23,841 bases of DNA, from assembly GCA_964403475.1 (NCBI GenBank), contig CAYOFR010000024.1, positions 1-23,841 of the forward strand. Direction: 5' to 3'. The notes below the pieces were generated by a model, which saw only the letters and a program-made list of their open reading frames with translations, had not been told where the DNA came from and did no database searches. Each line of letters opens with the position of its first letter. Positions within the stretch are counted from its first letter, which is position 1. Positions 3,597 through 23,841 of the stretch are shown piece by piece. Origin of the DNA: an uncultured Candidatus Saccharibacteria bacterium (GTDB lineage Bacteria; Patescibacteriota; Minisyncoccia; Phycocordibacterales; CALRHW01). Both the position numbers and the translations under genes were made by a program.

Positions 3597-3604
3597 TTAA
3601 AAAC

Positions 3605-3847
3605 ATGGCTAATACATGCGAAGTTACAAAAAGAGGCTCAATTGTTGGCGGTGGCTATAGCAACCGTACTCGTGCTACACAATTCAATCCAACAGGAAAA
3701 GTCCGAAAATATCTAAATCTTCAAAAGAAGAAAATCTACGTGCCTGAATTAAAAAAGTACGTAAACTTAACATTGTCTACAAGAGCAATAAAGACAATAA
3801 ACAAAAACGGAGCTTTCGCAACACTAAAAAAAGCGGGGCTTATCTAA
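3605..3847 (+). CDS. rpmB: 50S ribosomal protein L28 (bL28)
   Basis: 80 aa: MANTCEVTKRGSIVGGGYSNRTRATQFNPTGKVRKY...NLTLSTRAIKTINKNG... This matches the L28 pattern C.VTGK..(x)G...S...R.F.PN...VTLRVSAKGMR.I.K.G. A clean intrinsic terminator follows. Confidence 0.62.
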   Translation: MANTCEVTKRGSIVGGGYSNRTRATQFNPTGKVRKYLNLQKKKIYVPELKKYVNLTLSTRAIKTINKNGAFATLKKAGLI

Positions 3848-3867
3848 ATTTTATAAAAACTTTCCAA

Positions 3868-3892
3868 AATTCCGCCTTCTGGCGGTTTTTTG
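3868..3892 (+). terminator. Rho-independent terminator of rpmB. The stem is ccgcc/ggcgg, the loop is ttct, and a T6 run follows.
   Basis: ccgcc at 3872-3876, ggcgg at 3881-3885, tttttt at 3886-3891. Confidence 0.8.
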
Positions 3893-3919
3893 TTGTAAAT
3901 AAATTTAGATTCATCACTC

Positions 3920-3947
3920 TTGACTTATCTTATAAACACTGTATTGT
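3920..3947 (+). promoter_or_regulatory. Candidate sigma70-type promoter. The -35 element is TTGACT, followed by a spacer of 16-17 bp and a -10 element TATTGT.
   Basis: TTGACT is at 3920-3925 and tattgt at 3942-3947. The site is downstream of the rpmB terminator and about 70 bp upstream of the GC-rich gene. Confidence 0.4.
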
Positions 3948-3965
3948 GTCGAAAGATTTGAATAG

Positions 3966-3986
3966 ACGCCAACGTGGCGTTTTTTC
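3966..3986 (+). promoter_or_regulatory. Terminator-like hairpin (acgcca-acg-tggcgt plus a T6 run) placed between the candidate promoter and the RBS of the flotillin-like gene. It is either a leader attenuator or a second tandem terminator for rpmB.
   Basis: A 6-bp stem at 3966-3971 and 3975-3980, a T-run at 3981-3986, then caaaaacAGGAGActtcttaATG. Confidence 0.5.
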
Positions 3987-4016
3987 AGTCCTTTCACAAA
4001 AACAGGAGACTTCTTA

Positions 4017-6074
4017 ATGACGCTGTCCTCTACACTGGAATGGCTAAGCCACAATTGGTTGTGGGTGATCATTCCCATCCTTTTGATCGTCTTTTTCAAG
4101 ATTTGGGTGCGCTTCTTTGGCGTAGTACTGATCCCAAACGATTCCATCGGCATCGTCACCAAGCGATGGGTGCTCATGGGCAACAACCGACGCTTGCCCG
4201 ACGGCAAGATCATCGCTCTCAATGGAGAAGCCGGCGTCCAAGCAGACACGCTTGCACCCGGACTGCACTTTGGCTATTGGCCTTGGCAGTACTCGATTGA
4301 CACAGAAGAGTTCGTGGTCATTGAGGAAGACAAGATTGGTGTCGTTGAGTCGCGAGACGGAAAGCCCCTTGAGGCTGGACGTGTTCTCGCCAAGAAGGTC
4401 GCTTGCGACTCATTCCAAGATGCCAGAGCATTCCTTATTGGTGGTGGTGAGCGTGGTCCTCAAATCACGATTATCCCACCAGGTACGTACCGAATCAACA
4501 CCCAGCTCTTCACAGTAAGTGAGGTGCCTGTCCTCGAAATCGCGGACAACAAGATCGGCATCGTCACCACCAAGGAAGGTGCGCCGCTCCCATCAGGAGA
4601 AATTGCAGGCAAGGTCATCGAAGGACACAACATGTTCTGCGATGCCCAAGTCTTCATTGATGGCGGTGGTACCAAGGGTTTGCAAGAGCAAGTGATGCTT
4701 GCTGGTCGGTACTTCCTCAATCCCAATTTCGCAACCGTGGAAATTACGGAGATGACTGTGGTGCCGATTGCACACGTGGGTGTCGTTATCGCCTACGTGG
4801 GTGCGGCTGGAACAGACCTTTCTGGTGCTGCTTTCCAACACGGCAACTTGGTGGCACAGGGAGAAAAGGGTGTTTGGGCTAAGCCCTTTGATCCGGGCAA
4901 GTACCCGATCAACACCATGACTCACAAGGTAGAAAATGTGCCGACAGCCAACGTCGTGCTCAACTGGGCAACCGGTAAGACCGAGTCCCACAAGCTAGAC
5001 GAGAAGCTGTCCACTATCACAGTCCGGTCTTCAGACGGCTTTTCGTTCAATCTGGACGTTAGCCAGATCATCCACATTCCAAGCAACGATGCCTCCAAGG
5101 TTATCGCTCGCTTCGGAAGCGTGGCGAATCTGGTGACACAGGTCCTTGAGCCCACCATTGGCAACTATTTCCGCAATGCGGCTCAAAGCTCTGACGTCAT
5201 TGAGTTCCTCAAGAATCGTCAGGCTCGTCAGAACTCAGCGAAGGAAGCAATTGCTGAAGCTCTCAGGGAGTACAACGTCGTCGCCGTGAATACTTTGATC
5301 GGCGACATCGCTCCTCCTACAGAGCTAATGAAGACTTTGACTGATCGCAAGATTGCTGAACAGCAGAAGCTGACATTTGAAACTCAGCGAACAGCAGAAG
5401 AAACTCGAAAGTCACTCGAGCAGGCCAAGGCGCAAGCCGCTACACAGGCGGGCGTCGTGACTGCAGAGCGATCTGTCGAGATTGCAAAGTTCACCGCTGC
5501 GGCTGCTGTTGAAACAGCCGAGGGTGAAGCCAAGTCCAAGACCATCAATGCCAAAGCTGATGCTGAGGTGACGACGGTGACTGGCACTGCCCTGGCTACC
5601 AAGACGGCGGCAGTCGGTACTGCAGAAGCAACAGTCATTCGTTTGAAGACTGAGGCTGTCGGCCAAGACAACTTTGCTTTGATCGAGGTCGGTGGTGCAC
5701 TTGCCAAGAGCGGTCAGCGACTCACGCCAGACTTTGTTGTTGGCGCGAGCACTGGTCCCGACGGCAAGGGTGGCACTCTCGTTGATGTGTTGCTTGCTGG
5801 TCTCGTTCGCGAAAGCGTGAAGAAGGATGGTCACACTGTCCTTCCCAAGCCCACAACGACCGAACCCGCAGGAAGCACTGACGCTGATACTGCCACTGGA
5901 GCCACTCCGGCCCCAGCTCTGACGGCTCCAACACCGGAAACAGGAAGTCCTGCTCCGGCAAGTGGTACTGGTGACAAATCGGAGATCAAGTTGCAAAGTG
6001 ACGACTCTGCCCAAACGGGTAGCAAGAAGCCTGACAACAAGAAGGATCCGAAGAATCCAGGCAACAACAAGTAG
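4017..6074 (+). CDS. Flotillin-like SPFH/band-7 family membrane protein (YqiK/FloT-like). It has an N-terminal TM helix, two duplicated roughly 70-aa beta-rich modules, an SPFH domain, a long Ala/Glu/Gln-rich coiled-coil, and a Pro/Thr/Ala-rich C-terminal tail ending in a Lys/Asn-rich segment. The coding sequence is GC-rich (about 52-58 %), unlike the rest of the window.
   Basis: 685 aa. The TM helix is WLWVIIPILLIVFFKIWVRFF. The duplicated segments are DKIGVVESRDGKPLEAGRV...FLIGGGERGPQ and DNKIGIVTTKEGAPLPSGEI...FIDGGGTKGLQ. The SPFH-like stretch is ITVRSSDGFSFNLDVSQIIHI...VIARFGSVANLVTQVLEPTIGNYFRNAA, followed by the coiled-coil KIAEQQKLTFETQRTAEETRKSLEQAKAQAATQ.... Codons are GC3-rich (GGC, GCC, ATC, CTC, AAG) against an AAA/GAA/ATT-dominated background. 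Confidence 0.85.
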   Translation: MTLSSTLEWLSHNWLWVIIPILLIVFFKIWVRFFGVVLIPNDSIGIVTKRWVLMGNNRRLPDGKIIALNGEAGVQADTLAPGLHFGYWPWQYSIDTEEFVVIEEDKIGVVESRDGKPLEAGRVLAKKVACDSFQDARAFLIGGGERGPQITIIPPGTYRINTQLFTVSEVPVLEIADNKIGIVTTKEGAPLPSGEIAGKVIEGHNMFCDAQVFIDGGGTKGLQEQVMLAGRYFLNPNFATVEITEMTVVPIAHVGVVIAYVGAAGTDLSGAAFQHGNLVAQGEKGVWAKPFDPGKYPINTMTHKVENVPTANVVLNWATGKTESHKLDEKLSTITVRSSDGFSFNLDVSQIIHIPSNDASKVIARFGSVANLVTQVLEPTIGNYFRNAAQSSDVIEFLKNRQARQNSAKEAIAEALREYNVVAVNTLIGDIAPPTELMKTLTDRKIAEQQKLTFETQRTAEETRKSLEQAKAQAATQAGVVTAERSVEIAKFTAAAAVETAEGEAKSKTINAKADAEVTTVTGTALATKTAAVGTAEATVIRLKTEAVGQDNFALIEVGGALAKSGQRLTPDFVVGASTGPDGKGGTLVDVLLAGLVRESVKKDGHTVLPKPTTTEPAGSTDADTATGATPAPALTAPTPETGSPAPASGTGDKSEIKLQSDDSAQTGSKKPDNKKDPKNPGNNK

Positions 6075-6100
6075 TGAAGTTCTTTTCGCACATTTAACCC

Positions 6101-6142
6101 ACAGGGTTCCTAGTCAAGTGACTGGGAACCCTGTTTTCATTT
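6101..6142 (+). terminator. Intrinsic terminator after the flotillin-like gene. A 10-bp stem acagggttcc/ggaaccctgt flanks a 14-nt loop and is followed by tttcattt. It abuts the stop of the convergent MBL gene.
   Basis: The stem halves are at 6101-6110 and 6125-6134. The U-rich tract is on the plus strand only. Confidence 0.6.
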
Positions 6143-7039
6143 CCTCAACCACCTCTCCCCATTTGATTCAAATACAATAGTTCCCTGCTCGTACGTGCCA
6201 AGAATCGGAATTTTATTTTGCGTCAGGCGGTCGGTAACTTCGGGGCTCGGATGTCCATAAGAATTATTTTTTCCAGCAGAAATAACTGCGTACTTAGGTA
6301 AAACTTTTTGCAAAAAATCCTGACTTGTAGAAGTCTTTGACCCATGATGCCCCACTTTTAAAATATCGCTATTCAAGTGAGCCGTACTAGTAGATGACAG
6401 ACCACTCTCCAATTCAACCAAATATTTTTCTGTTTTTTCTGGAGCGTCACCAGTGAGCATTATAGATGTGTTTTTATACACCAACTTCGCGACTATCGAG
6501 CCGTCATTTGTAGAAAAAGTCGATACGTCTTTGTCAGGAAAAAGTATGAATAGATGCACGTCAGTATCAAGTAAAAAATCCATACCGCGGCGAGCTATTA
6601 CTTTTTTCGCATTTACACCTTTTATATCTTTTTCCAAATCAATAGCTTTTTCTAAATTTTTATAGACCTGTGTTTGCGTGACTGTCCCCGGCTCGACCAC
6701 CAAACCAACATCAAACTTTTTTAAAACACTAAGAAAACCTTCTATATGATCCCTGTCAGGATTTGTTACGACAATCATGTCTATTGAATCATCAAAAAAA
6801 GACATCCGCTTTGATAATTCACCAATGACATTATTACCAGGCCCACCATCTACAAGAATCTGATTTCCGTTGGGTGTTTCAATAAAAATAGCGTCACCTT
6901 GTCCAATATTTAAAAAAGCAACCTCAAGCAAACCACTGCCTTTGCTAGAAAAGATAAAAACCTGATACCAGACAAGCATTGAAGTAATAAAGAAAAATGT
7001 TATTAGCGAAAGTCGTGGGTATTTAAGTAAGTTTTTCAT
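6137..7039 (-). CDS. Membrane-anchored MBL-fold metallo-hydrolase, ComEC/Rec2 C-terminal-domain-like. It is a standalone gene.
   Basis: 300 aa. The N-terminal TM helix is LSLITFFFITSMLVWYQVFIF. The protein then has LNIGQGDAIFIETPNGNQILVDGGP...TNPDRDHIEG...KVGHHGSKTS...YGHPSPEV, which is the ComEC-type metallo-beta-lactamase signature. Confidence 0.78.
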   Translation of the reverse strand: MKNLLKYPRLSLITFFFITSMLVWYQVFIFSSKGSGLLEVAFLNIGQGDAIFIETPNGNQILVDGGPGNNVIGELSKRMSFFDDSIDMIVVTNPDRDHIEGFLSVLKKFDVGLVVEPGTVTQTQVYKNLEKAIDLEKDIKGVNAKKVIARRGMDFLLDTDVHLFILFPDKDVSTFSTNDGSIVAKLVYKNTSIMLTGDAPEKTEKYLVELESGLSSTSTAHLNSDILKVGHHGSKTSTSQDFLQKVLPKYAVISAGKNNSYGHPSPEVTDRLTQNKIPILGTYEQGTIVFESNGERWLRK

Positions 7040-7096: not shown

Positions 7097-7696
7097 ATGA
7101 AACCATACACAGAACAAAAATTTAATATCGGTGAGCTTGAAGGTATTTCTAAAAAAAATATTGAGGAACACTTCAAGCTCTACGCGGGATATGTCAAAAA
7201 TACAAATTTGATAATGGAAAAAATGGCTGAGCTTCGAGCAGACAGCGAAAAAAATGCTTACATGATCGGTGAGCTTCAAAGACGTTTTGGTTTTGAATTT
7301 GATGGAATGAGTAACCATGAATATTATTTTAAAAGCTTAGAAGGCGGACACTCAGATCTCAGCGCAGGCGACCTAAAGAGTATGATTGAGTCCCAGTTTG
7401 GTAGCTTTGATACTTGGCTTGCTACATTTACAGCCATGGCAATGACTCGAGGAGTGGGATGGGCAATGCTTTACTACGATCATCATGCAGGACAGCTCGT
7501 ACACGCTTGGGTAGAAGAGCAACATCTCGGACATCTCACCGGTCTACAGCCAGTCCTCGCTCTCGATATTTGGGAGCATGCATATGTATATGACTATGCA
7601 ACATCTGAAAAGAAAAAATACATCGAAGCTTTTTTCAAAAATCTAAACTGGAGCGTAATAGAGAAAAATTTTATGGAGGCAAAGAAGCTTGTTTAA
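7097..7696 (+). CDS. Fe/Mn-family superoxide dismutase
   Basis: 199 aa with GGH, GWAML, ALDIWEHAYVYDY (D-x-W-E-H ligand motif) and an N-terminal LEG.S....EEHFK..AGYVKNTN region. The second-sphere residues equivalent to E. coli MnSOD His30/His31 are Leu/Tyr here. Confidence 0.85.
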   Translation: MKPYTEQKFNIGELEGISKKNIEEHFKLYAGYVKNTNLIMEKMAELRADSEKNAYMIGELQRRFGFEFDGMSNHEYYFKSLEGGHSDLSAGDLKSMIESQFGSFDTWLATFTAMAMTRGVGWAMLYYDHHAGQLVHAWVEEQHLGHLTGLQPVLALDIWEHAYVYDYATSEKKKYIEAFFKNLNWSVIEKNFMEAKKLV

Positions 7697-9143
7697 GTTT
7701 TTTTCTAACATACAAAAAAGAAAAAATTAAATACAAAATAAAAACTAGCCACGGGGAAACCTGTGGCAAGTTTATGTAAGCGAAAGGTAAACCGGAAAAT
7801 ATTTCAACGACCAAAAGCATATACTGCAACAATAAATAAGAAAAATAACCAAAAATTAAAGAAAGAAAACCGCTAAAAAAACCTACCATACCAGTGACAA
7901 AACTCAGCGCCATCGCTATTGGCACAGCCAATAGTACAAGTAGATTGGTGACAAGAGAAACAATAGATACCATACCTGTCATATAGATAAGTAAAGGCAA
8001 AAGAAAAATTTGCGTAGCAAGTGTGGAAGCAACAGTAGAACGAATACCAAATTTTTCAGGCAAAAAACAAAGTTTTTTCTCAAAAAATGGAGAGCAAACC
8101 ACAAGAGCAAATGTTGCCATACAAGAGAGCTGAAAAGATGGATCTGATAAAAGGATAAGTGGGTTATGAAAAACCATTACAGAAGCAGCGAGAAAAAGTG
8201 CGCGCAAAATATCGTAATTACGTCCAGTCGCTCTACCAACAAGAGCAATACATGACATTATCGAAGCGCGCACCACAGTCGCCCCACTACCAGTAATAAG
8301 GGCAAAAGCAAAAATGCCCAAGATCCCACCGATAACTCCAGCAAACTTTGGTAGAAAAGAGAAAACTTTTACGATAAACTCAGCCACTATCGTCACGTTA
8401 TATCCAGATAGCACCACGACATGAACAAGTCCAGACTGACGAAAAGCATCAGTGAGCTCCTTACCCAAAGAATGTTTAGCACCAAGTAAAATACCTCCAG
8501 CGAGAGAAGAATGTGGCTCAGGAATAACTTTTTGTATATTCTCAATAAAATATTTTTTAAATCTAAAAAGATAATTCAAGAGAAAATTTCCATGACCACG
8601 ATCTATTATAAAAATGTCCGGCCGATAAATCTGATATCCTATACCATCTTTTTTTAAATAAGAAATATAATCAAACTCCCTACCGGTATTTGTCTCAAAA
8701 TTTTCAGGCAACTCTAAAAGACCCGATATTTTTACTCTGTCGCCATAAGCAAAATCATTGCCCAGTGGAACATTTACCAAGATTTTATATTTAGAATCAT
8801 CTGGAGCCACAACCAGACGCATACCACTTTCTCTGACATCGGGCTCATCTACCAAAATACCGCTGATTTCTATTTTTTCACCGACATAATCCTCAAAAAT
8901 ATCTTTTGTAAAAGGATGAGCAACAAAAGAATGCCTGGTAACACCAGCAAATATACAAAAAACTAAAACACTAAATAAAAATATTGAAGGAAATTTTTTC
9001 CTAAGAAAAGTAAAGGTTAAAAACAAAAGAAAAGAAACAAGAAAACAGTACAAACAAAAAATAAAAGAAAATTTTAAGAGAGAATCGATAGCAACGCCAC
9101 ACAAAAAACCAATCAAGACAACATAGAGAAAATTATCGCGCAT
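7671..9143 (-). CDS. comEC: ComEC/Rec2 DNA-uptake channel protein (DUF4131 OB-fold region plus competence membrane domain). It lacks the fused MBL domain. Its 3' end overlaps the convergent SOD gene by 26 bp.
   Basis: 490 aa, polytopic. The competence-domain region is ...LAGGILLGAKHSLGKELTDAFRQSGLVHVVVLSGYNVTIVAEF...GSGATVVRASIMSCIALVGRATGR... The ORF ends at 7671 while the SOD ORF ends at 7696. Confidence 0.8.
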   Translation of the reverse strand: MRDNFLYVVLIGFLCGVAIDSLLKFSFIFCLYCFLVSFLLFLTFTFLRKKFPSIFLFSVLVFCIFAGVTRHSFVAHPFTKDIFEDYVGEKIEISGILVDEPDVRESGMRLVVAPDDSKYKILVNVPLGNDFAYGDRVKISGLLELPENFETNTGREFDYISYLKKDGIGYQIYRPDIFIIDRGHGNFLLNYLFRFKKYFIENIQKVIPEPHSSLAGGILLGAKHSLGKELTDAFRQSGLVHVVVLSGYNVTIVAEFIVKVFSFLPKFAGVIGGILGIFAFALITGSGATVVRASIMSCIALVGRATGRNYDILRALFLAASVMVFHNPLILLSDPSFQLSCMATFALVVCSPFFEKKLCFLPEKFGIRSTVASTLATQIFLLPLLIYMTGMVSIVSLVTNLLVLLAVPIAMALSFVTGMVGFFSGFLSLIFGYFSYLLLQYMLLVVEIFSGLPFAYINLPQVSPWLVFILYLIFSFLYVRKKLKQASLPP

Positions 9144-12058: not shown

Positions 12059-13185
12059 TTTTTATTTTTCAAAGCTTCAATACCTGTCAAAGTCCCATTT
12101 GCGAGAAAATCTAGCATTGCACCACCACCAGAAGAGACAAAATTAAATTGCTTTTCTAAACTCATAGAAGCAATGGCAGCAAGAGTATCAGCGCCACCAA
12201 CTACAGACTCAGAAGCACTGTCTGCTATTTTACCCGCCAATTCAAGTGTTCCCTCCTTAAAACCAATTTCAAAATTACCGAGCGGGCCATTCCATAAAAC
12301 ATATTTTGCATCATTAACAAGCTCTGAAAGTTTTAAAAGTGTTTCTGCGCCAGCGTCTACTATTATTTCGCCGTCCCCTACCTCAGAAATAGTTTTTATA
12401 GAAATCTCGTCGCCATTTTTTACAACAACATCAGTCGGTAAAATAATTTTCTTTGTATCAAGCATTTCCTTTAAACCAAAATCACCATCAGACACCGTAG
12501 ACGCGCCTATGTTGTACCCAAGCTCTCTGAAAAAATTGTGAGCAAGAGCCCCACCGACAAATACAATATCGGCGATTTGTAGAAACTTTTTAATCAAAGG
12601 AATTTTTGTATCAAACTTCGCTCCACCTAAAATAAAAACAAAAGGGTGTGGAGGACTAAAGGTTTTTGATAGATGCTCTACTTCACTTTGTAAAAGTAGT
12701 CCCATAAAACCAGGTATATATTTAGGAATTCCAACTATAGAAGCGTGCTCCCTATGTGAAGAAGAAAAAGCCTCGTTTACATAAAAATCGGCCAAATCTG
12801 CTAATGATTTTGCAAAATCCTGATTGTTTTCTTTCTCTCCGGGATAGTTTCTTAGATTTTCAAAAAGAACACTTTCACCGTCTTTTAAATTATTAACAAC
12901 TTCTACAGTATTTTCATCTACATATTTTTCAACAAAAGAAATTGGCATTCTTTCTTTTAGATAATCAAATACTGGCTTTAGTGTTGAAGATTCTTTACCT
13001 TCGCAATGACTCAAAATTATTATTCTTGCGCCACGAGACTGTAAAAGCTCGATAGTTGGCATTGATTTCCTAATACGAAAATCGTTGAAAACTTTTCCAT
13101 CTCTCAGAGGCACATTTAGATCGAGACGCAGAATGACCTTCTTGCCACGCACATTTGTCATTTCTGTAACAGAGTGTGGATTCAT
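12055..13185 (-). CDS. pgk: Phosphoglycerate kinase
   Basis: 376 aa with RLDLNVPL..G, IILSHCEGK (the order-equivalent of the HLGRP motif), and C-terminal GGGA...DTLAA.. motifs. Confidence 0.93.
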   Translation of the reverse strand: MNPHSVTEMTNVRGKKVILRLDLNVPLRDGKVFNDFRIRKSMPTIELLQSRGARIIILSHCEGKESSTLKPVFDYLKERMPISFVEKYVDENTVEVVNNLKDGESVLFENLRNYPGEKENNQDFAKSLADLADFYVNEAFSSSHREHASIVGIPKYIPGFMGLLLQSEVEHLSKTFSPPHPFVFILGGAKFDTKIPLIKKFLQIADIVFVGGALAHNFFRELGYNIGASTVSDGDFGLKEMLDTKKIILPTDVVVKNGDEISIKTISEVGDGEIIVDAGAETLLKLSELVNDAKYVLWNGPLGNFEIGFKEGTLELAGKIADSASESVVGGADTLAAIASMSLEKQFNFVSSGGGAMLDFLANGTLTGIEALKNKN

Positions 13186-13189
13186 TTTT

Positions 13190-13966
13190 TTATTTTACCT
13201 TACTTACAATTTTTACTATATCACCAAAACTCACGGGCTCTAGACTTTGTCTTCCAACCAAAAATCCATCTACCTGACCTGCCTCGATAATATCTTTTGC
13301 ATTTATAGGTGCTACTGACCCACCATACAATACAGGTATCTTTGCAGAATCATCTTTACCATAAATATCTGAAAGTACTTTCTTTATAAAAATAGAAACT
13401 TCTTGTACATCCTTTCCGGCCATCGCATTACTATAGCTCTTCCCTATAGCCCAGACTGGCTCATAGGCAATGATAATGTTTTGTAAATATCTCTTTGGCA
13501 CTTTAGCCAGAGATTCTGTTATCTGATTTTTTAAAAAATCTAAATATTCCCCATTTTCGTTTCTTGTTTTTTCGCCGATACAAAGTATAACTTTCAGATT
13601 TTTCTCTACAGAAGCTCCAACCTTCCTAGCCACAACATCGTTTGTCTCGCCAAGCTCTCTGCGCTCAGAGTGGCCGACAATAACATACTTGCAACCAACA
13701 TCAAAAAGCATTTGAGCACTCACTTCCCCTGTAAAAGAACCGTTCTCTTCCCAAAAGACATCTTGCGAACCAATAGAGATTGATCCGGATGTTTTGTATA
13801 GAGGATAAATAAAAGAAAATGGAGGGCAAATGATTAATTCGACATTTTTTATATTATCTGTAACCCTCCTAATACCTTTAAAAATTTTACGCGCATCTTC
13901 TAAAGTCTGTGGGTTCATCTTCCAGTTACCCACCACAAATCTCTTTCTCTTTGTTACTTTTGCCAT
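13190..13966 (-). CDS. tpiA: Triosephosphate isomerase
   Basis: 258 aa with VVGNWKMN, IVGHSERR, IAYEPVWAIGK and YGGSV, the canonical TIM motifs. Confidence 0.93.
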   Translation of the reverse strand: MAKVTKRKRFVVGNWKMNPQTLEDARKIFKGIRRVTDNIKNVELIICPPFSFIYPLYKTSGSISIGSQDVFWEENGSFTGEVSAQMLFDVGCKYVIVGHSERRELGETNDVVARKVGASVEKNLKVILCIGEKTRNENGEYLDFLKNQITESLAKVPKRYLQNIIIAYEPVWAIGKSYSNAMAGKDVQEVSIFIKKVLSDIYGKDDSAKIPVLYGGSVAPINAKDIIEAGQVDGFLVGRQSLEPVSFGDIVKIVSKVK

Positions 13967-20944: not shown

Positions 20945-21904
20945 TTATAGAGAACCAATTCTCATAACCAAGACATCACCGTTACAATTCTTGTATCCGG
21001 CACCAAAATTCCACCACTGCCATTGACCGTTAGTATAATGTAAAAGAGTTCCAGCAAGTGTCGGAGCACCTTCACCAACAGTATTAATACAGTTTACAGC
21101 TCTCCATGATCCGTCTCCGGTTCCATTATTTGCTTCAGCTGAATCACATGGAACAGTGTTACTTGAATTAGAACACAATACAGCCATAGGCTCCCAAGTA
21201 GCCTGTCCACCGGTTCCGTTTGCCACAAGTGCATCACCAGACTTTGCACCACCACCACGAATTCTTATTGTTCCGTTTATATCAAGAGTATCTGATGGTT
21301 GTTGACCTGATTGTGTGTTGTTAAAAATAGAACCTATACCAACCTTAGATTGATTATAATAAATATTTGTATTAGCCAAGCTTGCAGAGCCCGAAAACAT
21401 AGGAACCTGATTTGCTGTACCAGAACCACTCACTCCTCCACCAGATCCGCCTGACCCACTAGCAGGCAACCTCCATTCTGCCAAACCACCATTACCCACC
21501 GCAGTTAAAACAGCACCTTCACTGACTGAATTATATTCTTGGCCTGGCAAAACTGGTCCGTCACCACCACCACGGATTCTTATTTTTCCGCCAACATCCA
21601 AAGTAGCTTGGCCGGTCAAATCTTCTAGATTTCCTATAGCAACTCTTCCATTTCTCACATAAAGACCTACTTGAGATATACCGCCAGTTAAATCCTGACC
21701 AACAGTAAGTCCTCCTGATTTGATCTGACCAGACAAGCCAACATGAATAGGTGCATCACAACCAGCTTGTCCACTAGTACAATTTGGCGGAGTGCTTTGT
21801 GGACCCGTCCAAGCTGTAAGCTGACTAATTCCCAAACTCAACACAAGAGCGAGAATTATTATTTTAAAACTATTTACTATTTCTTTTTTTGTTAAAACTT
21901 TCAT
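20945..21904 (-). CDS. Secreted glycine-rich protein with two tail-fibre-like repeat modules (hypothetical)
   Basis: 319 aa. The signal peptide is MKVLTKKEIVNSFKIIILALVLSLGISQLTA, followed by WTGPQSTPPN. There are two repeats of about 100 aa: ...VAIG...LDVGGKIRIRGGGDGPVL...GNGGLAEWRLP and ...KVGIGS...LDINGTIRIRGGGAKSGDAL...GTGGQATWEPM. The C-terminal region is Cys- and Trp-rich (NGQWQWWNFGAGYKNCNGD). Confidence 0.6.
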   Translation of the reverse strand: MKVLTKKEIVNSFKIIILALVLSLGISQLTAWTGPQSTPPNCTSGQAGCDAPIHVGLSGQIKSGGLTVGQDLTGGISQVGLYVRNGRVAIGNLEDLTGQATLDVGGKIRIRGGGDGPVLPGQEYNSVSEGAVLTAVGNGGLAEWRLPASGSGGSGGGVSGSGTANQVPMFSGSASLANTNIYYNQSKVGIGSIFNNTQSGQQPSDTLDINGTIRIRGGGAKSGDALVANGTGGQATWEPMAVLCSNSSNTVPCDSAEANNGTGDGSWRAVNCINTVGEGAPTLAGTLLHYTNGQWQWWNFGAGYKNCNGDVLVMRIGSL

Positions 21905-21944
21905 GTTATTAATTTGGATTGCTATTAACTATTAATATTATATC

Positions 21945-22274
21945 TTATTTCACACTCGTTGCATCAAGTATTTTCTTTCTCTCTGCTTCACTAGTGGAAT
22001 TCGCGCCGGATTTTGCTGTTGTACTGTTTATTATCTCTTTCATTTCTTCAGCACTCACATTTACTTTATTTTTTGCTGAAGTCGCTTCTATTATCTTCTC
22101 CTCTTCTGTCATTTCATGAACAGGAGAGATGTTGATCATTTGTTTTTTAAATATAGTCACCACAGCGACAACAACAATCAAACAAGCAATGAAAATTATT
22201 ATCCAGCGAGCTTTATTGTGATTTTTTGTGGGAACAGGAGCCGGGTTGAAAATTGGGTTGTTTGTATAATCCAT
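21945..22274 (-). CDS. Small single-pass membrane protein with a triple 'E-E-x-K-x-I-x-x-T-S-A-K' repeat (hypothetical)
   Basis: 109 aa. The TM helix is WIIIFIACLIVVVAVVTIF. The repeats are TEEEKIIEATSAKNKVNVS, AEEMKEIINSTTAKSGANSTS and EAERKKILDATSVK. Confidence 0.45.
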   Translation of the reverse strand: MDYTNNPIFNPAPVPTKNHNKARWIIIFIACLIVVVAVVTIFKKQMINISPVHEMTEEEKIIEATSAKNKVNVSAEEMKEIINSTTAKSGANSTSEAERKKILDATSVK

Positions 22275-22290
22275 AATATTTATTTATTTT

Positions 22291-23841
22291 TTAAAACTCA
22301 TTTACATTTGGACGCACTATAACCGTTGCAGAAGGACTACAATTTACCAGCAAAGAAGAGCTGTTTGAAGTATCGGTGACAACCACAGAAGCTGTTTTTA
22401 TACCAGTAGTAGAATAAACCTTAACAACACTTTGATCGGTTCCAGTTAATCCATTATCACCAGACCAACTATATGTAAAAGGTCCGACTCCTATAAGCGA
22501 AGCTGGGTCAACTGTCCATGTAATAGGAGAATTGACTATATAAGGTGGATTTTCTAAAGGTTTACAAGTTGCTGATACTGTAGAAGGTACAATTACAGTA
22601 ACCGTCTTTGCTGCAGAGCTTGGAGTGTTTTGACTTCCAGAAACGGTAATGACATATGTTCCTGGAGTTGTTGTTGTCTGCGCAGTTATAGAAAGTTTTT
22701 TCTGACATGATGGCTCACAACTAGATCCATCTGTGAAAGAAGATGTGATTGGATTACTAGCAGTTGAGGTATTGTTTGCTCCAGGTGCTGTAAAGGTCAT
22801 AGATTTAGAAAGTGTCACTGTTTCTGTTTTTCCAGAAACCAAATTTATAGATATATCAGATTCTTTTGTTGTATTTTGTGGATTTTGCCAAGAAAAGACA
22901 GCTGGATTTATAGAAATAGAATAATCAAAAGGAGCAGGGATACCGTAAGTTACTTTGTGGCGATTGTTTACTGGATCATCAAACCTAATCCAGCCAATAG
23001 CTTCTCCACCCCAAGCAGAGCCGACTATTCTTCCAGTGTTTCTGTTATATGTCAGACCAGCGTCACCGTCTTCATGACCAACTCCTGTAGCATGATTTGT
23101 TCCTGAAAGATGTATCCATCCATCAAAACCAGGTGTTGTATCACCGCTTATTACTCTAGCCCAACCAACAATACTTCCCACAGCACTACTTACATTTGTA
23201 AGAGAGCCAGCGGTACCAGCACCCTCTGCTCCAGAAGGTCCAGTTTGTCCACCAAAATTAATCCAACCCACAGCATCGCTCCAAGCATGACCCGATAAAG
23301 TTCCTGATCCACCCATTGTGCCATTATTATTTACCTTTACACCAAAGCTTGTAGATTGACCTGGAGCATTTGCATCACAAGGACTATCAGCAACGCCGTT
23401 TTGATCATCGTCTGTACAACTATTCATTTTTATCCAGCCGATGTTATCAGACCATGCCCAACCAAAAACATTACCCTCTTCATTTTCCACACACTGTCCA
23501 TTTGAATATGAGGAATTTCCCTGACATTTTGCTTCACACTTTGGAGAACTTCCGGCCGGTGTACTGCAGTTTTCCACTGCGGTATATGGCGTGTTTGCTG
23601 TAAGACCAGAATCATCTCCAGAACAAAGAGATGAATTTGCTGGCAAACTACCAGTACAAGAAAAAGTTTGTCCTCCCCCTCCACCACCATTTGAGCCATC
23701 ATTACCGTTACCATTACCAGAATCCGACTTCTTTCCACCGCCAGACAAAGAATCATCCTGACCAGGATTGTTAACACCATCTGAATCAACATATGTTACT
23801 TCCTGACAGGTACCAGCAACACCCTCTTCACAAGAACTACC
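22291..23841 (-). CDS. Large Cys-rich secreted protein with repeated 'GWAWS-x3-GWI-x-F' motifs and a C-terminal PKD domain. The reading frame stays open to the window end, so the 5' end is not in the window. The ORF-track start at 23748 is an internal TTG.
   Basis: Manual translation of the complement of 23749-23841 in frame gives GSSCEEGVAGTCQEVTYVDSDGVNNPGQDDS with no stop. The repeats are VFGWAWSDNIGWIKMN, SGHAWSDAVGWINFG, IVGWARVISGD...FDGWIHLSG and VGSAWGGEAIGWIRFDD. The PKD-like segment is PFTYSWSGDNGLTGTDQSVVKVYSTTGIKTASVVVTD (W.FGDG-type motif). Confidence 0.7.
   Translation of the reverse strand, partial: GSSCEEGVAGTCQEVTYVDSDGVNNPGQDDSLSGGGKKSDSGNGNGNDGSNGGGGGGQTFSCTGSLPANSSLCSGDDSGLTANTPYTAVENCSTPAGSSPKCEAKCQGNSSYSNGQCVENEEGNVFGWAWSDNIGWIKMNSCTDDDQNGVADSPCDANAPGQSTSFGVKVNNNGTMGGSGTLSGHAWSDAVGWINFGGQTGPSGAEGAGTAGSLTNVSSAVGSIVGWARVISGDTTPGFDGWIHLSGTNHATGVGHEDGDAGLTYNRNTGRIVGSAWGGEAIGWIRFDDPVNNRHKVTYGIPAPFDYSISINPAVFSWQNPQNTTKESDISINLVSGKTETVTLSKSMTFTAPGANNTSTASNPITSSFTDGSSCEPSCQKKLSITAQTTTTPGTYVITVSGSQNTPSSAAKTVTVIVPSTVSATCKPLENPPYIVNSPITWTVDPASLIGVGPFTYSWSGDNGLTGTDQSVVKVYSTTGIKTASVVVTDTSNSSSLLVNCSPSATVIVRPNVNEF

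Follow-up and report, generated by a model that had tools for sequence, protein, structure and literature searches.

YqiK of E. coli and FloT of B. subtilis (COG2268) combine an N-terminal membrane anchor and a Band_7/SPFH domain with a long helical stretch rich in Ala and Glu. Their genes are accompanied by NfeD neighbours, and neither protein is known to contain beta modules of the kind described below. Phage 'morons' are autonomous units that sit between other genes, each with a promoter, an ORF and a terminator, and that stand out by an atypical composition. In the SPFH cages of HflK/C-FtsH, QmcA-YbbJ, prohibitin, erlin, stomatin and flotillin, the membrane-binding element stands directly before the SPFH domain (PMC13100048).

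The gene analysed here lies in a window of 23,841 nucleotides, which is the whole stretch of DNA that was studied. Its product resembles YqiK and FloT in its anchor, SPFH domain and long helical region, but about 215 extra residues, forming three beta modules, separate the transmembrane (TM) anchor from the SPFH domain. In the solved SPFH cages no such modules intervene; here they would raise the height of the wall. The protein also differs from the SPFH-NfeD operon pairs (QmcA-YbbJ, YqiJ-YqiK) in having no adjacent NfeD gene. Pfam searches detected no such partner in the window, where its absence had already been remarked upon, nor beside the homologues L004, L059, L060 and that on the P0042 contig. 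With the phage morons the insert shares its own promoter, a single ORF, its own terminator, an atypical GC content and the lack of a mobility gene; unlike them, it is not part of a prophage but is located in a chromosome, flanked by housekeeping genes.

The explanation preferred here, to which a probability of about 0.75 is given as a whole, is that positions ~3893-6136 (~2.2 kb) would be a self-contained single-gene cassette, consisting of promoter, hairpin leader, Shine-Dalgarno (SD) sequence, 685-codon ORF and terminator. The source would have been a much more GC-rich genome or mobile element, and the recipient a genome of the Parcubacteria/Paceibacteria type (CPR), where the cassette occupies a variable slot between rpmB and a ComEC-type metallo-beta-lactamase (MBL) gene. 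The features of the locus are the following.

3605-3847, + strand: rpmB (ribosomal protein L28; Pfam Ribosomal_L28), native left flank.
3872-3885, + strand: intrinsic terminator of rpmB, hairpin and T-run (terminator scan), native; left edge of the insert.
3920-3947, + strand: sigma-70-type promoter TTGACT-16-TATTGT (promoter scan, 9/12 matches), assigned to the inserted cassette.
3955-3990, + strand: 5' leader stem-loop (RNA fold), with a core stem at 3964-3982 followed by a U-run.
3992-4002, + strand: A-rich motif TTTCACAAAAA, between hairpin and SD.
4004-4009, + strand: Shine-Dalgarno sequence AGGAGA, 8 nt upstream of the ATG, atypical for the host genome.
4017-6074, + strand: SPFH-family ORF of 685 aa, of foreign composition along its full length.
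6101-6134, + strand: intrinsic terminator of the cassette (terminator scan), a 15-bp stem followed by TTTTCATTT; repeat I2.
6137-7039, - strand: stand-alone ComEC-type MBL (Pfam Lactamase_B), native right flank.

The first-pass annotation had described a jump in GC at the start codon, lasting through the terminator and followed by a return to the host level, together with a switch to GC3-rich codons. Both were confirmed on recomputation, and the statistics along the window were not uniform. Windowed GC was 0.35 at positions 3601-4000, 0.51-0.58 at 4001-6000 and at most 0.395 from 6201 onwards; the ATG (4017) and the end of the stop codon (6074) were exactly where they had been placed. The ORF has a GC of 0.540 (GC1/2/3 of 0.590/0.446/0.583), compared with 0.35-0.42 for the 19 other genes of the window, the GC3 of which ranges from 0.21 to 0.365 (mean 0.279, sd 0.038), giving a z of 7.9 for the SPFH gene. 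Measured against the remainder of the window, its synonymous-codon KL divergence is 0.41, with no other gene above 0.23. Every segment of the ORF, from TM helix through tail, has a GC3 of 0.51-0.71, and the tail (0.51) is still foreign. The 169-bp spacer upstream of the ORF is AT-rich (GC 0.33). High GC is not intrinsic to the family, since the homologue L077 has a GC3 of 0.15 between flanks of 26 % GC and GC3 tracks flank GC across the family (r = 0.80, n = 56, a regression that is weakly constrained at its low-GC end). In a test for amelioration by regression over 60 homologues, the GC3 of the SPFH gene, 0.59, is 1.4 sd below the 0.70 predicted from GC1+GC2.

The slot is bounded by two convergent genes. 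rpmB is conserved in the relatives L061, L062 and L001, and in L144 and L062 it is followed by a homologous hairpin with the same tail, GGTTTTTTG, as in the window. Homologues of the MBL carry the names Parcubacteria, Nomurabacteria, Taylorbacteria and ComEC, and the lineage of the host is read from these. In L061 (MBL 71 % identical) rpmB lies directly beside the MBL gene with a gap of 4 bp, so that the slot is empty, an arrangement that had been suggested as a synteny check. The slot is occupied in L144 (MBL 90 %) and L062 (MBL 75 %) by an unrelated ORF of 217 and 225 aa, respectively, on the opposite strand, and by other ORFs in the P0131 contig and L145. The SPFH gene was thus absent from the slot in 5/5 relatives with MBL identities of 64-90 %.

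The slot ORFs of L144 and L062 are homologous to each other (34 % identical), have GC3 values of 0.60 and 0.64 and are preceded by a conserved leader. As both are GC-rich, the slot is one that can keep such genes or acquire them repeatedly, which counts for the alternative that the SPFH gene is a long-standing resident whose high GC was kept by selection or biased conversion and which was lost from the relatives. That alternative is nevertheless judged very unlikely in view of the five relatives without the gene, the nearest homologues, which are mostly from outside the CPR, and the fact that a protein of this family can be encoded at the low GC3 of L077.

An assembly chimera or binning artefact, joining CPR DNA to a fragment of a GC-rich organism, could likewise produce sharp composition steps at both ends in metagenomic data such as these. 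However, an ENA assembly has the identical junction sequences, and so do the Logan runs SRR6837549 and SRR6837555, each assembled separately. One 24-kb contig carries the whole gene, along with a promoter, SD and terminator of its own, exactly between two intact native genes; because the insert ends at gene boundaries on both sides, a chimera is considered the least credible of the alternatives.

The initial suspicion that the gene is foreign is supported by its atypical composition, by the five relatives that lack it at the slot and by its nearest homologues, most of which are in non-CPR contigs. Its horizontal acquisition as a cassette is very probable. No integrase marking the insertion was present among the window genes, no terminal direct or inverted repeats were found by a repeat search of the cassette ends, the window contains no tRNA, and no phage or plasmid genes adjoin the cassette. 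The transfer itself is ordinary and the donor is unsampled. The locus offers a clean, well-controlled case of single-gene entry into a streamlined CPR genome, with an empty site for comparison.

The signals upstream of the gene had been described as AT-rich and host-like, with the coding sequence fitted into a host intergenic frame. Their AT-richness held (GC 0.33), but native genes have neither a comparable SD nor a TTGAC promoter, and the notion of a host frame was not borne out, the empty site of L061 having only 4 bp. The promoter at 3920-3947 is the sole intergenic match to TTGAC-N15-19-TAnnnT within the window. A comparable SD was found in 0/19 native window genes and in 0/18 genes of the relative L061; a few window genes have weak matches of 4-5 nt only, at atypical spacing. 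In L004, L060, L062 and L144, the genes of unusual composition that were inspected do have SD sequences. Because native genes are without such signals and the gap in L061 is so short, promoter, leader, SD and terminator are placed inside the insert, and the rpmB terminator is the only native signal in the intergenic stretch. At the other end, the terminator stem reported at 6101-6134 was found again (15 bp); its T-run shares bases with the stop codon of the MBL gene (6137-6139), and the hairpin makes a good terminator only when read from the SPFH side. The gene is presumably expressed in its host. A canonical SD and sigma-70-type signals, where native genes have neither, constitute a second, independent marker of foreignness, by which acquired genes could be recognised in lineages of this kind.

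Compared with shuffled sequence, the leader hairpin shows no significant gain in stability (overall z only -1.5), and an attenuator or riboswitch reading of it is not claimed. No Rfam family was matched in the window or in the leaders of the relatives' slot ORFs.

The leader, with its GC of 0.33 unlike that of the ORF, resembles the leaders of two other Parcubacteria copies of the gene, L060 and L004. Both have a TTGACT promoter upstream of the SPFH gene and a hairpin at the matching relative position, and the 11-mer TTTCACAAAAA recurs identically in the L060 leader at equal distance to the ATG, a coincidence estimated at ~0.01 per leader pair and regarded as suggestive. The three copies (window, L060, L004) are 71-76 % identical and lie at unrelated loci, each being GC-richer than its flanks and preceded by promoter, 5' hairpin, A-rich tract and SD. 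L060 and L004 pair in the tree with 76 % bootstrap support. Such resemblances count for a cassette that came not directly from a free-living bacterium of high GC but from a mobile pool (phage, plasmid, other Patescibacteria) of 'moron-like' units, from which the leader with promoter and SD would also stem. Ralstonia megaplasmids do carry family members, as do an uncultured phage record of 642 kb and an IMG/VR viral contig of 77.6 kb. According to a survey (PMC12455944), Patescibacteria receive most of their detected transfers from other Patescibacteria, which also counts for such a pool. Against it, the copies on mobile elements share no more than 55-58 % identity with the window protein, and there are no phage or plasmid genes beside the cassette. 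GC3 values of 0.82, 0.58 (the window) and 0.49 among three copies with 71-76 % identity are hard to square with a long shared residence at low GC. An origin from a mobile pool is thus considered unlikely, though a good deal less so than long residence or a chimera, and acquisition from a genome or mobile element of higher GC is retained as the preferred reading. The window leader has no similarity to the upstream regions of non-CPR homologues, so its co-transfer from the sampled type of donor is not demonstrable.

The best non-self homologues are 68-72 % identical to the window protein; nothing above 72 % was found in scans of genomes, metagenomes and viral contigs or in a search of 5.8 billion proteins. 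The best homologues with known context lie on contigs of 55-73 % GC (a Vicinamibacteria MAG, soil metagenomes) or are the two other Parcubacteria copies. In a neighbour-joining tree the window protein forms an isolated branch beside a two-module clade, a placement with 23 % bootstrap support, and the members of this clade are mostly found in mid- or high-GC contigs of soil bacteria, including the Vicinamibacteria MAG. The donor-clade search proposed in the first-pass annotation thus returned a foreign placement with mostly non-CPR neighbours, but not a close donor, the best identity being 72 % and the node weak. Since no donor closer than 72 % was found, direction and route of the transfer are read from composition and synteny.

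The protein encoded by the cassette is composed of the following parts.

4056-4121, + strand: N-terminal transmembrane helix, ~residues 14-35 (hydropathy maximum 2.2; AF2 helices 14-33).
4122-4325, + strand: module u0, residues 36-103, degenerate copy of the beta module (hhalign; AF2 beta strands).
4326-4544, + strand: module u1, residues 104-176, putative vault-repeat-like beta module (Foldseek, hhalign).
4545-4766, + strand: module u2, residues 177-250, putative vault-repeat-like beta module (Foldseek, hhalign).
4767-5426, + strand: SPFH/Band-7 domain, residues 251-470 (Pfam Band_7 at residues 284-464).
5427-5711, + strand: long alpha-helical (coiled-coil) region, residues 471-565 (AF2 helices 435-474, 481-548 and 550-564).
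5778-5819, + strand: conserved C-terminal hydrophobic helix TLVDVLLAGLVRES, residues 588-601 (AF2 helix; conserved columns).
5823-6071, + strand: low-complexity T/P/K/A-rich tail, residues 603-685, predicted disordered (pLDDT <50).

All parts that had been read from the translation, namely TM helix, duplicated beta module, SPFH core, coiled-coil and low-complexity tail, were recovered. The proposed band 7 assignment was verified by a match to PF01145 at residues 284-464 (96.5 bits against a curated cut-off of 23.6, E 2.6e-27). Pfam searches with single modules and with the tail, and NCBIfam, gave nothing informative. The bulk of the protein is probably cytoplasmic, because K28 and R32 stand at the C-terminal end of the TM helix (positive-inside rule). 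Among PDB sequences, the family profile matched flotillin-2 residues 248-402 (E 8.5e-5), QmcA and HflC, in each case in their helical parts. In the C-terminal hydrophobic helix, L588, V589, V591, L592 and L593 are near-invariant alignment columns, and by analogy this helix is a candidate cap-closing element. The tail varies, with relatives of 605 aa lacking it and other homologues having different tails.

The internal repeat was missed by self-BLASTP and found by profile-profile comparison. Residues 104-176 and 177-250, a duplicated module of ~73 aa, align in hhalign with a probability of 98.8 % (E 5e-17), and a trace of the duplication is left at the DNA level in u1 and u2 at a spacing of 219 nt (repeats D2, D5). 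The degenerate u0 aligns with u1 and u2 at a probability of ~89 % (E ~2e-6). The first SPFH strands (u3) are homologous to the modules as well (u1 versus u3, probability 88 %, E 3e-6). These alignments show the repeats to be duplicates of the first SPFH beta segment.

The architecture had been called unusual for an SPFH protein. It is in fact the norm in a family with more than 8,000 database matches and 2-14 modules per protein, to which the window protein almost certainly belongs. At E <= 1e-10 the module-bearing proteins fall into 864 clusters, in which as many as 13-14 modules stand in tandem ahead of the SPFH domain, and a Band_7 match was obtained in 50/50 aligned homologues. The common build is a TM helix, tandem beta modules of ~72 aa, SPFH domain, long helix, hydrophobic C-terminal helix and variable tail; giant forms have an additional C-terminal VWA domain. 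Database labels are 'YqiK' (JGI) or 'SPFH domain-containing', and cultivable hosts include Niveibacterium and Ralstonia (plasmids). This module-bearing SPFH subfamily is large and uncharacterised.

A role as a dedicated scaffold for the competence/type IV pilus machinery, or as a component of anti-phage defence, had also been put forward. Genes for ComEC, PilB, PilC and pilin are found at distances of up to 15 kb, and SPFH proteins generally organise membrane complexes, but PADLOC gave no match (E <= 0.1), the slot is variable and flanked by native housekeeping genes, and no conserved partner gene recurs among the homologues that were inspected for their surroundings. Such a role is accordingly held to be very improbable.

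Searched with Foldseek, the full-length AF2 model had the major vault protein (MVP) as its 12 best matches (E 4e-7 to 1e-4); prohibitin, erlin, HflK/C, flotillin and stomatin ranked lower. With the model of the modules alone, 15/15 of the top matches were MVP, at marginal E values of at least 0.018. Mean pLDDT was moderate, 65 for the full-length model, in which the SPFH core is poorly modelled, and 67 for the module-only model; the latter was used for the domain-level searches despite its lower confidence, residues 61-250 reaching ~72-93 in the full-length model. In the models, tandem MVP-type beta repeats before an SPFH shoulder and a cap helix were found both in fold and in order. The Pfam Vault/MVP models, including MVP_shoulder, matched no single module (E <= 10) and 0/50 family members (E <= 1), and a sequence profile search of the PDB did not reach MVP. 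In the absence of a Pfam Vault/MVP match among the 50 members, homology between modules and MVP is not established by sequence. Going by the models, a vault-repeat-like fold of the modules is nonetheless rather likely.

From these elements the following assembly is proposed. The N-terminal beta segment of the SPFH domain would have been duplicated several times in succession to give the modules, which would fold like MVP repeats. By analogy with HflK/C, QmcA, flotillin, prohibitin, erlin and vault, the chains would oligomerise side by side into a ring, pinned to the membrane by the TM helices. The stacked beta modules and SPFH domains would make up a tall wall, with the long helices closing the dome. 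This membrane-attached 'half-vault' would enclose a membrane patch, most likely at the cytoplasmic face, and may corral or shield membrane proteins. A membrane-attached cage of this kind is judged, by analogy, to have a slightly better than even chance. A soluble closed cage of two halves does not fit, the TM N-terminus being incompatible with N-to-N dimerisation of free half-cages.

Compared with MVP, the window protein has the same succession of tandem small beta repeats, SPFH 'shoulder', long helix and C-terminal disordered region, with 2-14 repeats in the bacterial family and nine in MVP. It differs in its N-terminal TM helix and in its modules, which at ~72 aa and with a short helix are unlike MVP repeats. 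MVP has no described membrane motif, and its half-vaults dimerise via the N-terminus (PMC13100048). The repeat domains of MVP are regarded as unique to the vault in the vault/SPFH literature, which for every other SPFH protein takes an anchor immediately before the SPFH domain to be the rule (PMC13100048). If the modules are truly homologous to them, this 'unique to the vault' domain has a bacterial membrane-bound precursor. The family would then be an architectural link from the canonical SPFH cages to the vault, with the vault wall originating from duplication within SPFH, and the combination of a bacterial TM anchor and vault-like repeats would make that origin testable. Tall, membrane-attached bacterial cages would moreover be expected as a new class, some of them in cultivable hosts.

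Prokaryotic MVP homologues reported earlier, from Myxococcales, Cytophagales and Oscillatoriales together with ten Asgard proteins, contain repeat, shoulder and cap-helix parts, as does the window family (10.1101/872010; PMC12962969). Vault-like repeat modules in a membrane-anchored SPFH protein have not been described previously. A large unrecognised bacterial family of membrane-anchored 'half-vaults', with TM helix, 2-14 MVP-like repeats, SPFH shoulder and cap helix, is put forward tentatively, the window protein being one of its small members. The earlier homologues are few and can be detected by BLAST or as reciprocal structural best matches to MVP, whereas the window family has many members, carries a membrane anchor and goes under the SPFH label alone.

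The reading frame at 4017-6074 (+), which encodes a protein of 685 residues, differs sharply in composition from the rest of the window. The GC content was 0.35 at 3601-4000, 0.51-0.58 over 4001-6000 and at most 0.395 from 6201 onwards. Calculated per gene, this SPFH gene had a GC of 0.540 and a GC3 of 0.583 (z = 7.9), against a GC of 0.35-0.42 and a GC3 of 0.21-0.365 (mean 0.279, sd 0.038) for the 19 other window genes. Its synonymous-codon divergence from the rest of the window (KL 0.41) exceeded that of all other genes (at most 0.23), and GC3 was elevated all along the ORF, with values of 0.71 for the TM helix at one end and 0.51 for the tail at the other. The GC rise and the codon-usage switch described in the first-pass annotation were thus confirmed, as were the terminator at 6101-6134 and the AT-rich upstream spacer (169 bp). 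The exact protein was also found on an ENA assembly contig (24.4 kb) and in the separately assembled runs SRR6837549 and SRR6837555. A 300-bp segment over the upstream junction was identical in 3/3 contigs and the downstream junction in both contigs extending that far; since the junction sequences agree across separately assembled contigs, an assembly artefact was rejected. That the composition island is real is well supported.

High GC is not intrinsic to the SPFH family, as members occur in very AT-rich DNA: a 47 % identical one (contig L077, 1657-3411) has a GC3 of 0.15 between flanks of 26 % GC. This copy shows how far composition ranges within the family. In a set of 56 homologues, gene GC3 tracks flank GC (r = 0.80).

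Two further window ORFs, 20945-21904 and the PKD-domain ORF 22291-23748, have a total GC of 0.41-0.42 with local windows up to 0.47. Their GC2 is high (0.52-0.57) but their GC3 low (0.21-0.23), which indicates an effect of amino-acid composition, and 20945-23748 was rejected as a second island.

The neighbouring genes in the window are rpsG, rpsL, an M50 peptidase gene, rpmB, a stand-alone MBL gene (ComEC C-terminal type), SOD, ComEC, RNase H, RecJ, HIT, PGK, TIM and type IV pilus genes. The MBL protein has named homologues in Nomurabacteria, Taylorbacteria, Yonathbacteria, Parcubacteria and Patescibacteria, hence the host is a Parcubacteria/Paceibacteria-type CPR bacterium. ComEC is split in the window, with a DUF4131 and Competence part at 7671-9143 (-) and the MBL-domain part at 6137-7039 (-). 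The SOD gene at 7097-7696 (+) lies between them, its 3' end overlapping that of ComEC by 26 nt. The split arrangement is kept in the relatives L061 and L145.

The slot between rpmB and MBL was compared in five contigs from relatives (identity of the MBL protein to that of the window):
L144, 90 % (closest relative): slot holds an unrelated ORF of 217 aa on the MBL strand
L062, 75 %: slot holds an ORF of 225 aa, homologous to that of L144, on the MBL strand
L061, 71 %: slot empty, 4 bp between MBL and rpmB
P0131 contig, 67 %: slot holds a different ORF of 236 aa
L145, 64 %: a different ORF follows MBL; the contig stops before rpmB

The SPFH gene was absent from this position in all five relatives, and their varied content shows the slot to be variable. 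By this comparison the gene is confined to the window lineage, which gained it once it had diverged from that of L144. The native rpmB terminator (3872-3885) also occurs in L144 and L062; all the sequence between about 3893 and 6136 belongs to the insert.

The slot ORFs of the relatives (L144:1017-1821, L062:1397-2235, L145:6910-7717) were also inspected. The 217/225-aa ORF encodes a membrane protein, and its L062 copy gave no Pfam match. The L144 and L062 proteins are 34 % identical, yet both genes are GC-rich (GC3 0.60 and 0.64) in AT-richer surroundings (L144 MBL gene GC 0.37; L062 flanks GC 0.45). A TTGACT-type promoter (TTGACT-17-TATAAT in L062) and a conserved leader of about 110 nt precede each of these two genes. 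The leader shows seven compensatory pairs among three sequences and matched no Rfam family, which makes it a candidate for an unknown cis-regulatory RNA.

The inserted cassette comprises the following elements:
3920-3947, predicted promoter
3955-3990, 5' hairpin
4004-4009, Shine-Dalgarno sequence (SD)
4017-6074 (+), SPFH ORF
terminator, its T-run overlapping the MBL stop codon

The AGGAG Shine-Dalgarno lies 8 nt upstream of the start. None of the 19 native window genes has a comparable SD, a few showing weak 4-5-nt matches at atypical spacing, and none of the 18 genes of L061 carries one. The promoter is the sole intergenic match to TTGAC-N15-19-TAnnnT in the window. The first-pass annotation took the gene to be driven by native, host-like signals; this was wrong, and because the signals are unlike the native ones the cassette is self-contained. 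The atypical GC-rich genes examined all have strong AGGAG-type SDs: the SPFH genes of two other CPR contigs, L060 and L004, three more genes in the island of L004, and the ORFs that fill the slot in L062 and L144. Native genes of the Parcubacteria contigs (window, L061, L062, L004, L060) are essentially without SD. In this lineage the presence of an SD may flag acquired genes. The AT-rich window leader resembles those of L060 and L004 (TTGACT -35 box, hairpin, A-rich tract) and shares an identical 11-mer with that of L060; leaders of non-CPR homologues showed no resemblance to it. Neither repeats nor an integrase or tRNA gene were found at the cassette borders.

At least 8,000 homologues of the window protein were retrieved. 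Among the matches listed, the best were 68-72 % identical, and the donor is not among the sampled sequences. The best matches include 605-aa proteins with neighbours resembling those of large-genome bacteria; one contig of this type, L059, has flanks of 71 % GC. A copy in a Vicinamibacteria MAG reaches about 70 % identity in its best tblastn segment but about 60 % over aligned columns. Some soil-metagenome copies form a group (gene GC 0.55, GC3 0.64, flanks 58 % GC) that comes near the window gene in composition.

Two copies lie in other Parcubacteria. The three CPR copies occupy unrelated loci, each GC-richer than its own flanks:
Window copy: GC3 0.58; native genes mean 0.28
L060 copy: GC3 0.82; neighbouring genes 0.33-0.56
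L004 copy (Harrisonbacteria): GC3 0.49; most flanking genes about 0.42

In an NJ bootstrap tree the window protein formed an isolated branch beside a two-module clade (23 % support for its position), and the L060 and L004 copies paired inside that clade (76 %). At 71-76 % protein identity, such a spread of GC3 values speaks for independent acquisitions from GC-richer sources and against a single ancient entry.

The L060 gene (3906-5771, 71 % identical) forms a sharper single-gene island between flanks of 44 % GC; its contig was assigned to Parcubacteria by a flavoprotein neighbour with Parcubacteria/Paceibacterota homologues. At L004:10001-15463 the SPFH gene is the first in a row of four SD-bearing genes whose GC3 is raised (0.49, 0.53, 0.87, 0.59), of which 12969-13766 has a GC of 0.66.

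Family members were encoded on Ralstonia megaplasmids (plasmid hits H1-H6, 56-58 % identity), on a 642-kb uncultured-phage record (LR756502.1:343892-345580, 55 %) and on a 77.6-kb putative viral IMG/VR contig (L075 = L146, IMGVR_UViG_3300021363_000001, 55 %), making mobile vectors plausible for the spread of the family. Horizontal movement of SPFH genes is known in Pseudomonas (PMC13086221). Transfer into Patescibacteria is documented mainly from other Patescibacteria, recent cross-phylum transfers being described as rare (PMC12455944). The foreign origin of the SPFH gene is well supported; acquisition of a foreign gene alone is an ordinary kind of event.

The protein belongs to the SPFH superfamily. 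Band_7 (residues 284-464) was its only Pfam match, and PDB sequence searches gave weak matches to QmcA, flotillin-2 and HflC. It has an N-terminal hydrophobic helix, tandem homologous modules, long helices, a conserved C-terminal hydrophobic helix (588-601) and a disordered tail. The proposed internal duplication was recovered by hhalign, residues 104-176 matching 177-250 (probability 98.8 %, E 5e-17). A degenerate copy (36-103) matches both modules (E about 2e-6), and 104-176 also aligns with the opening strands of the SPFH domain (251-330, E 3e-6). These alignments show the modules to have arisen by serial duplication of the SPFH domain's N-terminal beta segment. The architecture had been thought unusual, but the same build is found family-wide: the 605-aa forms have as many modules as the window protein, the 672-aa forms one more and the 769-aa forms two more. 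Searching 1.84 billion representatives with residues 36-255 (phmmer) returned 1,574 clusters at E <= 1e-3, 864 of them at E <= 1e-10. Among the proteins recovered are giant members (P0366, P0367, P0368; 1,638-1,802 aa) in which 12-14 tandem modules of about 72 aa lead up to the SPFH domain and a von Willebrand factor A (VWA) domain forms the C-terminus.

The full-length AF2 model had a mean pLDDT of 65, with about 72-93 over residues 61-250, most of the modules. In Foldseek against the PDB, its 12 best matches were all major vault protein (MVP; E 4e-7 to 1e-4), ahead of prohibitin, erlin, HflK/C, flotillin and stomatin. With a module-only model, MVP made up 15/15 top matches at marginal E values (0.018-0.26). 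The Pfam Vault/MVP models matched neither the modules nor any of 50 family members, so the protein is not in the MVP sequence family.

By the positive-inside rule, K28 and R32, which lie at the inner end of the TM helix, suggest a largely cytoplasmic protein. By analogy with solved SPFH cages and the vault, subunits would pack side by side into a ring fixed to the membrane by the TM helices, with modules and SPFH domains as the wall and the converging helices as the dome. The product would be a membrane-attached half-vault whose height is set by the number of modules. The default expectation from the superfamily is a role in sequestration or quality control of membrane proteins. The phage-defence and pilus-specific roles raised earlier found no support: PADLOC gave no match for the protein, and the homologue contexts examined held no conserved partner gene.

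In other SPFH proteins the membrane motif immediately precedes the SPFH domain in the chain (PMC13100048), and prokaryotic MVP homologues have been reported only from a few Bacteria and as ten Asgard proteins (PMC12962969; 10.1101/872010). No description of a TM-anchored, repeat-bearing SPFH family was found in the literature searched. Like the window protein, MVP runs from beta repeats through an SPFH shoulder and a long helix to a disordered C-terminus. On the moderate-confidence structural models, the family unexpectedly looks related to the vault in design, with a membrane anchor.
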